From IMG/VR virus record IMGVR_UViG_2531839454_000020: a stretch of DNA of 34,734 nucleotides. One strand, written 5' to 3'. The notes below the pieces were generated by a model, which made no database searches, had not been told where the DNA came from, and saw only the letters and a list, made by a program, of their open reading frames with translations. Below are positions 2,306 to 6,596 of this stretch, in pieces (position 1 is the first letter of the stretch; each line of letters starts with the position of its first letter). Position numbers and translations under genes: made by a program. The stretch comes from a virus (lineage: Duplodnaviria; Heunggongvirae; Uroviricota; Caudoviricetes).

Positions 2306-2485
2306 TTAACAAACTTGAACGTTAATCTTTATCTGAATTTCGTATTTCTTCATTAGCTTATAGAATCCGCTTCTATCAATTCCTTCCTTCTTAAAGAAAT
2401 TCTCGCCGCCTCGTTCAGTATCGCCATAAAAGCGTTTAGCAATATCAACAATCATTTCACGAGTAAACTTAACAGGTCTAGCCAT
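2306..2485 (-). CDS. small HTH protein (59 aa), resolvase-type HTH; paralog of 5729..5962
   Basis: Start taken at second Met (MARPVKFTREMIVDIAKRF...GIDRSGFYKLMKKYEIQIK) with GAGGA SD; shares the RPxKF...GI-x4-FYK-x-MKK-x-IK pattern with two other ORFs in the window. Confidence 0.45.
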   Translation of the reverse strand: MARPVKFTREMIVDIAKRFYGDTERGGENFFKKEGIDRSGFYKLMKKYEIQIKINVQVC

Positions 2486-2842
2486 AAGTAGATTCCTCAA
2501 ATGTGGATTAATAAGGACAATAAAAAGAGCTTTTCGCCCTCGATACTTCTATTTATAAAAGTCATTTCAGAAAACCCTGCAAAACCACTGTATATCTGAT
2601 CAGCGGGAGCACGAATTGCTAAAGAGAAGATTAATAATTAATCAATTCGTACATTATTCAATCGAAAAAGCACTGTGTGTTTAACCAGTGCTGTGTGTGT
2701 TAACAGTGAATCAGGGGATTTTCAGAAGTGAACAATCATTTCATGCATGTATTTATACACGAAAAAATCTTGTTTATCATCAATATGGGGATTGTTTCGA
2801 AAATTTCAACCCCTACCAATGAGAAAAAGTATAAAATAATCA

Positions 2843-2856
2843 TTGACAGTTGTCAA
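2843..2856. promoter_or_regulatory. inverted repeat of TTGACA half-sites (TTGACA-GT-TGTCAA); candidate operator and/or minus-strand promoter -35
   Basis: Perfect inverted repeat; on the minus strand TTGACA (c2856..2851) is followed after 17 nt by TATACT (c2833..2828). Confidence 0.3.
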
Positions 2857-3051
2857 TGCACTTGACCTAAGCGAGAAATGACTATCAAAATTTTTGTGTG
2901 AAAATGGCGGATAACGATTATCAACCTTTATAACCTATTATAGCACGGCGACCTTTTGATAATTCTTTTTAAATCATGCATTTACAGCGATTTTTGGTGA
3001 TTTTCCGGTTAAATAATATACAAGAATTTTCTATCAAAATTTTTGATGAAA

Positions 3052-3169
3052 AACCTACACTACAAACCTACGCTTTAAAGGGATTGGCCTACACTAGTCA
3101 GTAAACCTACACTATAACACCCTCAAACCTACACTATGAAACCTACACACCTACACTAACCCTACACTT
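3052..3169 (+). repeat. array of 7 to 8 same-orientation CCTACAC(TA) direct repeats, irregular spacing
   Basis: CCTACAC at 3054, 3089, 3106, 3127, 3142, 3150, 3161 plus variant CCTACGC at 3066; most preceded by AAA. Confidence 0.7.
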
Positions 3170-3513
3170 CAATCTCATAAGTGTATGATCTTGAAAGACA
3201 TTTCACCCCACAGACCATAGAATATAAAATTCGAACTAACGTTCTCCTTTTTGCTCGTTTTCTCTCACTACGTTCAAGAAAGATCTCGCAAAAAGAATAC
3301 GGCGTAGCCGTGCGCGAAGCGCCCATCAACACCTTCTAAGACCTGCAAGCAGGATTCGAAAGGGATTGGATAGTTCGCTTCGCTCACGTTCACGCCTACG
3401 GCGTTCACTCGCTTTTGAAAGGATTTTCTTAGAAAGGGATTTAATACTAGTTACTAACTGATTCTAGTAAACGAACGAAGTGAGTAACAATCACTTTCTA
3501 GAAAGGTATTGGT

Positions 3514-3542
3514 ATCCCTTCGGGATTGCAACCTTCGGTTGC
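3514..3542 (+). other. two adjacent stable hairpins (atccc-ttc-gggat and gcaacc-ttc-ggttgc)
   Basis: Back-to-back stem-loops with UUC(G) loops, separated by 1 nt, in non-coding DNA. Confidence 0.5.
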
Positions 3543-3670
3543 TAAATTGCTTCCTGATTATAATTTCTCCAAAAGAAAGATTCTTATATTCTAAAGATAC
3601 TTCTTCGTTTTGATGATGATTTAATCAAATATATGAAGGAGGGCTTTAGCCCGACTGAATCCAATCACTT

Positions 3671-3724
3671 CCAAATAGATAAAAAATTCTCGTTATAAAT
3701 AATAGTGAACTTACTTGATTCACT
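3671..3724 (+). promoter_or_regulatory. conserved promoter-like element CCAAAT-N17-TATAAATA-ATAGTGAA plus inverted repeat (copy 1 of 2)
   Basis: CCAAAT 3671..3676, TATAAATA 3694..3701, AGTGAA 3704..3709 pairing with TTCACT 3719..3724; second copy at 30451..30515. Confidence 0.45.
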
Positions 3725-3745
3725 TTCTTTTAGAGGATTTCCACT

Positions 3746-4195
3746 ATGATCAATACTAAAACTCCTTTCGTACTTCTGGGTCTGGACTCTGAAAACTATG
3801 GCAACTTCCATATGCTAGAAGTTTTCGCTAATCGTGGTTATAACATCATTCGTCATTCCGAAGACTCCAACTACTCAACTGCTTTCTACGCTTTAAAACG
3901 AAATGGTCGTCCTACTGTGATCATCGACTGTTTTACTGATGAAGGTCGTCTTCAATACAACGATATTCCAGCAATTATTGTTCGTGATGATCTGCCGTTT
4001 CAAGTCCGTGAATATGACGTTGATTTAGGCTCTTACTATGGGATCGCCGATCTTGACCAGATTATGGCTGATTACGGTAAAGAAACCGCTCAGGAAGCCC
4101 CAGAACAAGATGAGGAAGACGAAGACTACGCACCAATCGCTTTCTCTTCTCACGGTGGCTTCTACGGTTACGATGAAGGCTTAGATATGCTGTAA
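3746..4195 (+). CDS. hypothetical protein (149 aa), acidic C-terminus
   Basis: ORF with AGAGGA SD; C-terminal EAPEQDEEDEDYAPIAF. Confidence 0.55.
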   Translation: MINTKTPFVLLGLDSENYGNFHMLEVFANRGYNIIRHSEDSNYSTAFYALKRNGRPTVIIDCFTDEGRLQYNDIPAIIVRDDLPFQVREYDVDLGSYYGIADLDQIMADYGKETAQEAPEQDEEDEDYAPIAFSSHGGFYGYDEGLDML

Positions 4196-4648: not shown

Positions 4649-4737
4649 TAAATTTCTATCATAAATAAAAATGTTCCGGTGATGCTGCCGGAACTAGGAG
4701 GATCAATATCACTAAACCGTTTAAGGGGAATTTTACT

Positions 4738-5580
4738 ATGAATACTGTTACTACTATGAATACTGCTGTTAAAACTGCTTCCGTGTCTCTGGTTGTTGAT
4801 AACACCAAACCGCTGACCATGTCTACTTTGCAGATCGCGGAATTAACCGGAAAGAATCATAAAGATGTTATGCGTGATTTTCGTAATATGGTTGATTCAC
4901 TTGAAAAGGGTAGCAAACTGGTCGGAGGAGATGAGCGCAATTTTGCGCCCATCGGTTTTTATAAAGAAACGACTTATAAAGATTCTCTGAATCGTAATAA
5001 ACCGATGTATGAACTGGATGAAGATCTCTGTAATACTCTGGTTATGGGATACGATGCACCGCTTCGCTTCAAAATTGCTAAAGAATGGCGTTTGATGAAA
5101 GAAGGTAAAGCTAATGTTCCGGTTAATCCATATGAACACTTTGAAGAAACCGACTGGATCGAACTGGCGTTAAAGAAAACTCGCGAAAACAAACAACTGA
5201 TTGAACTTCATGTTCGTAAGTCTGTAGATAGCCATTCAATGACCCGTCTGTTAGGCGCTAAAAAGGGCGCTACGAAGGTTAAAGAAGCACTGACAGCCTT
5301 GCGTACTGCTGGATATATTGAGCGCGTCTATGATGAAAATAACAAGCCGTGTGGGTATGTTGCTAATGATTCCGCTTTACCGTTTTGCAGCATGAACGCT
5401 CATTATCAGCTTTCTTTTACTGTTGATGTGCTTCCGGTGCTGGTTGAATTGGGTGTTCTGGAAGAAGAACAAAAAGCAACTCTGAATCTTCCTAAGCCGA
5501 ACAACACTATTCTGATTCAAAATAAAGCGGCTGAACGTCTCCGCCAGAATGTTGGATCACTGGAAGTCTTCGGACTGTAA
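4738..5580 (+). CDS. Rha-family phage regulatory protein (antirepressor-like)
   Basis: N-terminal LTMSTLQIAELTGKNHKDVMRDFRNM...CNTLVMGYDAPLRFKIAKEW resembles the Phage_pRha domain (recalled); SD AGGAGGA. Confidence 0.6.
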   Translation: MNTVTTMNTAVKTASVSLVVDNTKPLTMSTLQIAELTGKNHKDVMRDFRNMVDSLEKGSKLVGGDERNFAPIGFYKETTYKDSLNRNKPMYELDEDLCNTLVMGYDAPLRFKIAKEWRLMKEGKANVPVNPYEHFEETDWIELALKKTRENKQLIELHVRKSVDSHSMTRLLGAKKGATKVKEALTALRTAGYIERVYDENNKPCGYVANDSALPFCSMNAHYQLSFTVDVLPVLVELGVLEEEQKATLNLPKPNNTILIQNKAAERLRQNVGSLEVFGL

Positions 5581-5588
5581 TAATTTTT

Positions 5589-5613
5589 AGCCTCGCCTCG
5601 TGCGGGGCTTTTT
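5589..5613 (+). terminator. intrinsic terminator after the Rha-like gene
   Basis: agcctcgc/gcggggct stem followed by ttttt. Confidence 0.55.
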
Positions 5614-5689
5614 CATACCTACATCACGCGACTTTTCGCGCCATCTTCCACCAACTCGCCGATGGCGTTTTGGACAACCCTATAGATAC

Positions 5690-5713
5690 AAAAAAGCCAC
5701 TCCGAAGAGTGGC
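5690..5713 (-). terminator. intrinsic terminator for the minus-strand cassette
   Basis: + strand aaaaaa-gccactc-cgaa-gagtggc; on the minus strand the hairpin is followed by a U-tract, 16 nt after the stop at 5729. Confidence 0.55.
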
Positions 5714-5728
5714 AAAGAGAATCAAAAC

Positions 5729-5962
5729 TCAAAAACCTGTTGCTTCTACGATCTGACCATCACCGATCTGAACATAGAATTTAATGTCTAACTTCTTCAT
5801 ATTCTTATAGAATTGGGCAATTGAAATCCCATGTTCACTAAGAATCTGTTCTTTCGCTTCCTTACCACGATCCGCTGTATAATAAGCGTAGGCAATATCA
5901 GCCATTTGTTCAGCGTTAAAACGGGCAGGACGACCGCGAGTAGCTTTAGTAGTCATAGTCAT
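5729..5962 (-). CDS. small HTH protein (77 aa), resolvase-type HTH; paralog of 2306..2485
   Basis: GRPARF...GISIAQFYKNMKKLDIKFYVQ; GRPxKF then GI-x4-FYKxMKK resembles the C-terminal HTH of serine recombinases (recalled). Confidence 0.5.
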   Translation of the reverse strand: MTMTTKATRGRPARFNAEQMADIAYAYYTADRGKEAKEQILSEHGISIAQFYKNMKKLDIKFYVQIGDGQIVEATGF

Positions 5963-5990
5963 TTCTCCAAATTAAAGTGAATGTTCACTT

Positions 5991-6596
5991 TTATTTAGAG
6001 GACTTACATTTTATCGGAAAAAGTTCTCCATCGTCAATACTCATAAAGAACTCTGCCTTAATCCCGTACTTCTTCAACCGTGAATAGTATGTACCCCGAC
6101 TTATATCAACCTTGCGCAGCACTTCAAAGAACCCTTTAGGATCGTTGTAATAGTGGCTGTATCGCACGTTAGCGAGTTCTACAAACAATTCCCTTGTATC
6201 ACCATAGCCTTTCTTGAAAGCCTCGTTACGATAGCGTGTAATAGCGTGATTCAATCTCTTCTGTTTCAACACTTCTCGGATCGGCTTCCACTGCAACCTA
6301 TAGATAGGACCGTCATCAATGCGATAATAACGCTTGATATCAAAATCAAACCAATCTCGGACTCGCTGAAACTCTGTCTGTGAGGTGCGATACTTCTTAA
6401 AGAAGTTATGAATATCGGTATACCCATGATCACGATACAACTCGATTAAAATCTGTTTAGCTTCCTCACGACTAAAGCCAGATGTTGTGTAATCAGTCTT
6501 CTTGTGATGGTGCTTAACTGGCAAACGATATTCATGATCGGTACAACAAGAAAAGGCTAATTCTACTTCATCTCTTTGTTGCTGATTAATTAGCAT
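5991..6596 (-). CDS. HTH-containing DNA-binding protein, possible free-standing homing-endonuclease-like gene (201 aa)
   Basis: Cys/His cluster near the N-terminus ([18 protein letters not shown]); C-terminal [21 protein letters not shown] matches the HTH motif of the two small paralogs. No catalytic motif confidently recognised. Confidence 0.4.

Follow-up and report, generated by a model that had tools for sequence, protein, structure and literature searches.

Three paralogous helix-turn-helix genes of a ycdX-inserted prophage encode candidate transcription regulators

Introduction

What is the function of three small, related proteins encoded in the left arm of a tailed-phage prophage? The virus record IMGVR_UViG_2531839454_000020 (Caudoviricetes) is a 34,734-nucleotide stretch of DNA, referred to here as the window, and represents most of a ~36-kb prophage. 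It contains three open reading frames (ORFs), ORF59, ORF77 and ORF201, named for the lengths of their products in amino acids (aa). A reading of the sequence alone had described them as a family of helix-turn-helix (HTH) modules of the serine-recombinase type and had offered three roles: recombination directionality factors, small regulators, or remnants of split endonucleases. Among these, small regulators fit best. With moderate confidence, the three proteins are paralogous phage transcription regulators that bind DNA sequence-specifically at conserved promoter regions. That they bind DNA, where they bind, and in which direction they regulate are inferred.

Three genes and four homologous modules

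ORF59, ORF77, and ORF201 all lie on the minus strand (Table 1) and are homologous, as had been proposed, with scores well above chance. BLASTP aligns ORF59 with ORF77 at E=1e-9, ORF77 with ORF201 at E=0.002, and ORF59 with two separate parts of ORF201: residues 134-180 at E=4e-5 and residues 41-88 at E=0.012. Collecting relatives gave families of 19, 39, and 25 clusters; every cluster comes from Escherichia, Shigella, Salmonella, or Proteus and carries the annotation 'hypothetical'. The families are represented by alignments A1 (ORF77), A2 (ORF59), and A3 (ORF201), and all modules together form alignment A4. Family-to-family comparison with hhalign relates ORF77 to ORF59 (96.8%, E 2.5e-10), ORF77 to module B of ORF201 (92.9%, E 3.6e-7), and ORF59 to module A of ORF201 (95.6%, E 1e-8). 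The sequence-only reading had suggested a multiple alignment as a check, and in A4 all modules align end to end. The proposed family of three is confirmed as three paralogous genes, with the correction that they hold four modules, two of them in ORF201.

When the family hidden Markov models (HMMs) are searched against all 526 six-frame ORFs of the window, the other two paralogues rank next at E 1e-4 to 3e-9. Noise begins at E>0.07, only the paralogues score better, and this search of the window ORFs finds no additional copy of the module. At the DNA level the paralogy shows up as a family of 31-nt direct repeats (2336, 5783, and 6060).

The motif string is GIDRSGFYKLMKKYEIQIK in ORF59 and GISIAQFYKNMKKLDIK in ORF77, and module B of ORF201 carries a counterpart. 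Upstream, ORF59 has ARPVKF and ORF77 has GRPARF; ORF201 lacks this motif. The shared motif and the upstream GRPxKF described earlier are thus approximately right, although the exact strings differ. Beyond the motif, ORF77 and both ORF201 modules contain a conserved [IV]-[DG]-[DG]-G-x-[IL] hairpin, whereas ORF59 ends after the hairpin's first strand. Invariant positions in the ORF59 family (A2) are MARPVKFTRE and GID-S-F-KL-KKY; those in the ORF77 family (A1) are G10, R11, P12, and EHGISIAQFYK. Because its relatives all begin with MARPVKF, ORF59 starts at the ATG at 2485, which gives the 59-aa product, and not at an upstream TTG. The probable start of ORF77 is its second ATG, at 5956, as in most relatives.

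Fold and family placement

AlphaFold2 (AF2) models calculated with the family alignments show the modules of ORF201 and ORF77 as three helices followed by a two-stranded hairpin, with a predicted local distance difference test score (pLDDT) of 80-90 within modules. The ORF77 model (pLDDT 81.6) contains helices at residues 17-29, 34-43, and 48-55 and strands at 63-65 and 71-73. In the ORF201 model (overall pLDDT 71.5), module A is composed of helices 43-57, 62-68, and 73-83 with strands 87-93 and 98-100, and module B of helices 135-148, 153-162, and 167-176 with a strand at 181-187. The linker between the two modules has a pLDDT below 50.

Direct searches do not assign the module to a named family. 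Pfam, PHROG, and NCBIfam scans of the three proteins return nothing above threshold. For the resolvase-type family HTH_7 (PF02796, gathering score 23.8 bits), none of the three proteins matches at E<=1, and only 2 of 43 module sequences match at all, below threshold and with a best E of 0.059. No module matches HTH_8 (Fis/NtrC, PF02954), and neither the window proteins nor the 43 modules directly match HTH_23 or HTH_28. The window proteins also lack a match to HTH_17 (winged-helix excisionase or MerR-like, PF12728), to which an ORF77 homologue in the divergent relative L017 aligns at only E 0.034. Comparison of the sequence profile with the PDB gives no meaningful match, and Foldseek finds nothing with E<0.2 for the ORF201 model against the PDB or the ORF77 model against BFVD.

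A HMMER scan of 1.8 billion representatives with A4 finds 32 proteins. Outside the prophage family, the matching proteins are 260-980 aa long and contain 4-10 HTH units in tandem; single units match A4 weakly, at 24 bits or less, and significance arises from the summed repeats. From these proteins 157 tandem units were extracted and 44 were aligned as A5. A4 and A5 align with hhalign at 96.5% (E 8.7e-10) over 45 columns, from helix 1 (F-T-R-E) through the KKYGI tail. The A5 units in turn match Pfam: 30 of 44 match HTH_23 (best E 3e-8), 25 of 44 HTH_28 (6e-7), and 17 of 44 HTH_7, with HTH_29 and HTH_Tnp_1 also matched. Because of this transitive homology from A4 through A5 to Pfam, together with the fold, the module is placed by profile and model in the simple tri-helical resolvase/transposase-type HTH group, outside Pfam HTH_7.

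The tandem-HTH proteins (P0085, P0086, P0088, P0089, P0091-P0093, and others) come from a Clostridium metagenome-assembled genome (MAG), public assemblies, and metagenomes. Their units are of the HTH_23/28/7 type, and the longer proteins have a large C-terminal domain.

The module had previously been assigned to the HTH class found at the C-terminus of serine recombinases. The HTH domains predicted by AF2 and the RGRP arm of ORF77, which resembles the GRPR of Hin, are in keeping with that assignment, whereas the HTH_7 threshold is not reached. The closer likeness to serine recombinases fares worse, since the recognition helix is nearer to Fis than to Hin and the window's own recombinase lacks HTH_7. 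In that comparison, which is a lead only, the recognition helix and KKYGI tail score 6-9 bits against Fis and ~1 bit or less against Hin. A distant single-module match, P0111, matches HTH_8 at E ~1e-3, and the repeat-unit profile aligns with an NtrC-family HTH structure at E 0.003. A further match of that profile, to the 'CAP repeat' of PDB 8vd6, was discarded as a de novo designed protein. The arm itself varies within the family: RGRP is invariant in the ORF77 family, ORF59 has ARP, and both ORF201 modules lack an arm. The family is Pfam-less and previously unnamed, but of a very familiar HTH kind.

Conservation and candidate control regions

Of 34 close loci from E. coli, Salmonella, and Proteus, all 34 carry the three genes intact with their four modules, and gene order is conserved in Salmonella and Proteus. 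Where synonymous divergence (dS) is not saturated, the ratio of nonsynonymous to synonymous substitution rates (dN/dS) is 0.08-0.35, which indicates purifying selection. EHGISIAQFYK, the recognition helix of ORF77, is invariant across genera. Between the window and the E. coli relative L001, ORF59 is 97% and ORF201 94.5% identical.

In the left arm, ORF80, ORF331, and ORF59 read leftward and are followed by a 1.26-kb non-coding stretch (2486-3745). ORF149, ORF110, and Rha then read rightward to a terminator at 5589-5609, and ORF77 and ORF201 read leftward. A gap of 87 bp separates ORF201 from the gene for the large terminase, TerL, which leads the rightward late genes. Each of the three HTH genes heads a transcription unit, and the non-coding DNA beside it is much more strongly conserved than the proteins encoded nearby.

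The 87-bp control region between ORF201 and TerL (6597-6683) has a mean column identity of 83% and 61 invariant columns across seven loci from E. coli, Salmonella, and Proteus, whereas the flanking proteins are 51-67% identical. The same core is found in 33 of 35 loci. An inverted repeat in this region has the arms GTATTTAT (6622-6629) and ATAAATAC (6648-6655), and the minus strand carries a third, related copy, GTATTAAT, at ~6612-6621. On inspection, GTATTTAT and ATAAATAC allow a reading as the -10 elements of two divergent promoters that overlap completely.

The upstream region of ORF59 contains two footprints that do not vary between genera: the -10-like TTATAAATA (2550-2558) and ATTAATCCACAT (2501-2512). 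A conserved hairpin and T-run lie between them at 2525-2541. A similar TATAAATA(C) element precedes ORF149.

Table 1. Coordinates of the HTH genes, their modules, and associated features in the window
Feature	Position	Strand or direction	Remarks
ORF59	2306..2485	-	One HTH module: ARPVKF arm at the N-terminus, three helices, hairpin limited to its first strand
ORF77	5729..5962	-	Single HTH module: RGRP arm, three helices, complete beta-hairpin
ORF201	5991..6596	-	Two tandem HTH-hairpin modules, preceded by 37 N-terminal residues of low confidence
ORF201 module A (residues ~38-104)	6285..6485	-	BLASTP second match; hhalign A2 vs A3; HMM domain 1, 81 bits
ORF201 module B (residues ~120-198)	6003..6239	-	BLASTP; hhalign A1 vs A3; HMM domain 2, 98 bits
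Divergent ORF201/TerL control region	6597..6683		Candidate operator and overlapping promoters
ORF59 proximal upstream region	2501..2558	-	Alignment A7, six loci
Intrinsic-terminator-like hairpin ending the ORF201-ORF77 unit	5696..5713	-	
24-nt-arm inverted repeat (79% complementary)	5958..6007		Spans ORF201 stop and ORF77 ribosome-binding site and start
ORF331, probable iteron-binding replication initiator	1194..2189	-	Directly downstream of ORF59; not an HTH-family member
Large terminase TerL, lambda-type (GpA_ATPase + GpA_nuclease)	6684..8591	rightward	
Large serine recombinase	31588..33282		Resolvase + Recombinase + Zn_ribbon_recom

Proposed function

As transcription regulators, the three proteins would act at two places. 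ORF201 and ORF77 would be transcribed from a promoter lying back to back with, and overlapping, that of the TerL-led late operon, and would most likely act on the nearly invariant 87-bp region; the invariant recognition helix of ORF77 fits such an invariant target. The two modules of ORF201 would probably read a bipartite site as a monomer. ORF59 would head, and probably autoregulate, the replication operon (ORF59 followed by ORF331), behind three LexA-box-like sites. Within the module, the hairpin may serve as a 'wing' after the tri-helical HTH, and RGRP in ORF77 or ARP in ORF59 as a minor-groove arm. In the Edwardsiella-like relative L017 the homologues of all three genes lie together with Rep on one strand, next to the iterons and at a distance from TerL, an arrangement in keeping with one set of early regulators. 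Beyond Rha, the recombinase, and the probable initiator, no other predicted DNA-binding regulator, such as a CI/Cro-type repressor, was found among the scanned ORFs of the early region and right end; the small ORFs of the late operon lay outside that scan.

Several observations weigh against this proposal. DNA binding and an operator enter it by inference only, and no co-variation of variants of these proteins with a DNA site was found. The type of ORF59 is shuffled relative to the iterons, the LexA-like boxes, and the upstream repeats. Neither ATAAATAC nor GTATTTATYAA is statistically enriched in the window; ATAAATAC has 5 copies against 2.25 expected, with 8 of 100 shuffles reaching 5, so it may simply be a promoter (-10) element.

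A stronger form of the proposal treats the three paralogues as the complete transcription circuit of a temperate phage without a CI/Cro-type repressor, forming a bistable switch; this form is distinctly doubtful. In it, host LexA would gate ORF59 and the replication operon, while ORF201 and ORF77 would read three GTATT(T/A)AT sites in the overlapping divergent promoters. Transcription of ORF201 and of the late operon would be mutually exclusive, and the duplicated HTH module would operate on TATAAATA-type promoters without a -35.

If the proteins are regulators, three 'hypothetical proteins' that are core genes of widespread, unstudied ~36-kb prophages gain a testable role, and the tri-helical HTH superfamily would be extended by a branch absent from Pfam. 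The region 6597-6683 would then be a compact one for dissecting a lysis-lysogeny or late switch. No general principle is altered.

Alternative functions

One alternative is that the proteins, and ORF59 in particular, are accessory or architectural factors of the replication origin that aid ORF331 rather than transcription factors. This is unlikely. In its favour, ORF59 lies directly upstream of a Rep-like gene in all 35 loci, whatever the Rep type. In L017, an Edwardsiella-like relative, homologues of ORF201 (frameshifted), ORF77, and ORF59 form a same-strand cluster with Rep right after the iterons, so that all three HTH genes lie between iterons and Rep. The dominant repeat array within 2500..3745 consists of iterons, (A)CCTACACTA, at 3051-3172. 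Across the 35 loci there are at least four iteron types, among them CCTACACTA, TTGCCCCTGAA, and GCTAGGGAT, and they behave as exchangeable modules. Downstream of ORF59 lies a gene of ~313-377 aa, and its type changes in perfect step with that of the iterons. In the window this gene is ORF331, which is 56% identical in Salmonella loci with the same iterons and has no detectable similarity in E. coli L001, where the iterons are different. Because its type tracks that of the iterons, ORF331 is a probable iteron-binding initiator; it matches no Pfam or PHROG family.

The two types of ORF59, by contrast, are shuffled relative to iteron and Rep types. Since ORF59 is nearly the same protein in the window and L001 despite completely different iterons and Rep, it is not the iteron reader. 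Binding of the modules to the repeat arrays in 2500..3745, which the sequence-only reading had suggested testing, is not supported, as the iterons track ORF331 and not ORF59. The position of ORF201 and ORF77 also argues against an origin role: in the E. coli, Salmonella, and Proteus family these genes adjoin the late operon, and ~3.5 kb separates them from the origin region. Iteron arrays in relatives occur at 12840-13040 in L001, at 4300-4500 in L017, and also in L009.

The directionality-factor role named in the sequence-only reading is improbable. Under this explanation, ORF59 or ORF77 would have the recombinase, and not DNA, as its binding partner and would turn it towards excision. The prophage relies on a large serine recombinase and no such factor is annotated, while ORF59, behind its LexA-like boxes, could be made on induction. 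Several factors for large serine integrases, such as SPbeta SprB and TP901-1 Orf7, are small and mutually unrelated, which also counts in its favour. However, three paralogues with four modules of DNA-binding type exceed the needs of a single integrase partner, all the genes are promoter-proximal beside conserved non-coding DNA, none is near the recombinase gene, and none resembles any named factor in Pfam, PHROG, or NCBIfam. A paper on SPbeta SprB, treated there as the cognate directionality factor of integrase SprA, offers no sequence criterion for such factors.

There is likewise only a small chance that the modules no longer bind DNA and work instead by contacting proteins, for example LexA or Rha as partners, or by serving as anti-repressors. 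This would agree with the failure to assign an operator, with an ORF59 type that does not co-vary with any upstream DNA element, and with the nearby LexA-like boxes and Rha gene. The modules nevertheless keep features typical of DNA contact: a conserved helix 3 with basic residues after it and the RGRP arm in ORF77. Moreover, relatives without LexA-like boxes, and a Proteus relative without Rha, keep all three genes.

It is very improbable that the packaging site is read by ORF201, alone or together with ORF77, as the small terminase subunit. ORF201 adjoins TerL and contains HTH modules, the DNA between the two genes is highly conserved, and the window contains no small terminase gene. Relatives, however, encode a separate Nu1-like protein of 177-201 aa near attL (phrog_57, E 1e-16 to 1e-22), and TerL has been swapped between the window and L001 without a comparable change in ORF201; on these two grounds the identity was rejected. 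In addition, ORF201 has no match to a Nu1-type family in Pfam or PHROG and no oligomerisation domain in its AF2 model, and its homologue is far from TerL in L017. In that relative, Rha and TerL lie on the opposite arm from the HTH-Rep cluster, which indicates that the three genes behave as one early-side set and not as terminase partners. The relatives carry their Nu1-like gene right after the point that matches 277 in the window. Because the window's homology to its close relatives stops at that position, its own Nu1-like gene was probably either displaced by the insertion there or left outside, past the left edge.

The swapped TerL alleles (window 6684-8591, L001 16727-18631) are 59% identical overall. 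Their first 15 residues are identical, the breakpoint follows ~codon 15, and the flanking head-tail joining gene is 96% conserved. The closest cultured TerL is that of phage DCP80 (43%), whose small ORFs upstream of TerL are unrelated to the module.

Functionless, decaying remnants of a split homing endonuclease, the last of the earlier suggestions, or of a transposase DNA-binding domain are hardly credible and are contradicted by the intactness of all three genes in every close locus of three genera, the low dN/dS, the invariant recognition helices, and the lack of an adjoining nuclease or transposase domain in any locus, even though in Pfam the related repeat units come closest to HTHs of transposase and resolvase type and an endonuclease-like ORF (30846..31514, phrog_681) occurs elsewhere in the window.

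Neighbouring non-coding elements

The three LexA-box-like sites upstream of ORF59 lie within 120 bp at 2588-2603, 2673-2688, and 2691-2706 and were identified as CTGT-N8-ACAG with at most 1 mismatch. Salmonella relatives keep all three boxes, closer to consensus (e.g. CTGTATATTTTCACAG), whereas relatives with another Rep/iteron type mostly lack them and have TAACA repeats instead. This pattern suggests that in some members of the prophage family the ORF59-Rep operon is under SOS control.

An 18-nt palindrome, CATTGACAGTTGTCAATG, is located at 2841-2858 and has perfect 8-bp arms around a non-symmetric GT centre. It contains TTGACA on both strands, as back-to-back -35 boxes, including a strong leftward promoter-like TTGACA-17-TATACT. 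The TTGAC-N4-GTCAA palindrome is retained in Salmonella relatives.

The GC-rich stretch at ~3295-3560 contains inverted repeats (3301-3321 / 3376-3396) and two UUCG-loop hairpins, ATCCCTTCGGGAT and GCAACCTTCGGTTGC, at ~3512-3545. It is 81% conserved in Salmonella relatives, and a similar stretch occurs in L017; it could be an origin structure or an unclassified RNA. Rfam and tRNA scans of the 1.26-kb non-coding region return no family.

One arm of the inverted repeat at 5958-6007 is 84% identical to the leader of ORF149 (3719-3743, TTCACTTTnnTTTAGAGGA). That leader is 86-88% conserved in Salmonella, where the ORF149 protein is only 38% identical.

Prophage content and distribution

In addition to TerL and the recombinase, the window encodes a portal, a protease-capsid fusion, the head-tail joining protein ORF165, and tail genes. 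The prophage family is inserted in ycdX, and its hosts are E. coli, Shigella, Salmonella, and Proteus. In E. coli strain 23CRST001 the element splits ycdX, and the Salmonella and Proteus relatives adjoin the same PHP-domain gene. DNA related to 2200-6700 (80-95% identity) is present in 58 of 5426 complete E. coli genomes and is always chromosomal; in 10 of the 58, at least 80% of 2200-6700 is covered in one match. The cultured-phage and plasmid collections that were searched lack homologues of ORF201 and ORF331 as well as DNA matching the region, and a literature search on ycdX prophages found nothing relevant.

The left end of homology at 277 adjoins a 100-bp element (177-276) that is 98-99% identical to sequence of Stx2 phages and has in one case been annotated as a 'passively mobilized insertion similar to IS285'. 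The endonuclease-like ORF222 (30846..31514) matches its phage endonuclease family at E 5e-17 and has no Pfam model. Its position is occupied in relatives by a GIY-YIG nuclease (L002) or a T5orf172-like gene (L009). In L017, a reverse transcriptase-TIR fusion (RVT_1 + TIR_2) at 9335-11044 lies just beyond the small terminase gene and is likely a defence gene at the prophage edge.

Comparison with known systems

The tri-helical HTHs of resolvases and transposases (HTH_7, HTH_23, HTH_28, HTH_Tnp_1; Hin, Tn3 resolvase, Tc3, CENP-B) have in common with the prophage modules a three-helix bundle with a recognition helix, and in Hin the GRPR arm resembles the RGRP arm that precedes helix 1 of ORF77. 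Unlike these domains, the prophage proteins are standalone, with no fused catalytic domain. Helix 1 is longer and followed by a 6-10-residue insert before helix 2, the modules add a C-terminal beta-hairpin, and one of the proteins has a tandem duplication.

In the HMMER scan, the closest proteins outside the prophage family are the tandem-HTH proteins, represented by MBS4759514.1, a 981-aa 'helix-turn-helix domain-containing protein' from a Clostridium sp. MAG. They contain 5-10 units each and have the same ITKE...GIS..TY..LLKKYGI signature as the prophage modules. They differ in that their units are ~50 aa without the hairpin and are joined to a large, unrelated C-terminal region.

The C-terminus of Fis, GINRGTLRKKLKKYGMN, resembles the recognition helix and tail of ORF201 module B; this serves as a lead only, and the likeness stays under all thresholds. 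Neither Fis nor NtrC has the N-terminal arm or the C-terminal hairpin, and both bind DNA as dimers held together by other domains.

Lambda Nu1 is an N-terminal HTH protein encoded near a GpA-type large terminase, much as ORF201 adjoins TerL. ORF201 differs in having neither similarity to Nu1 nor an oligomerisation domain, and the prophage family has its own Nu1-like gene.

Mor and C of phage Mu have no detectable sequence homology to the prophage proteins and are dimers with a distinct N-terminal dimerisation domain, and an activator role in the prophage would be an assumption. They nevertheless provide a working analogy for ORF59, ORF77, and ORF201: paralogous small HTH activators that act at successive stages of transcription on promoters with a poor -35.

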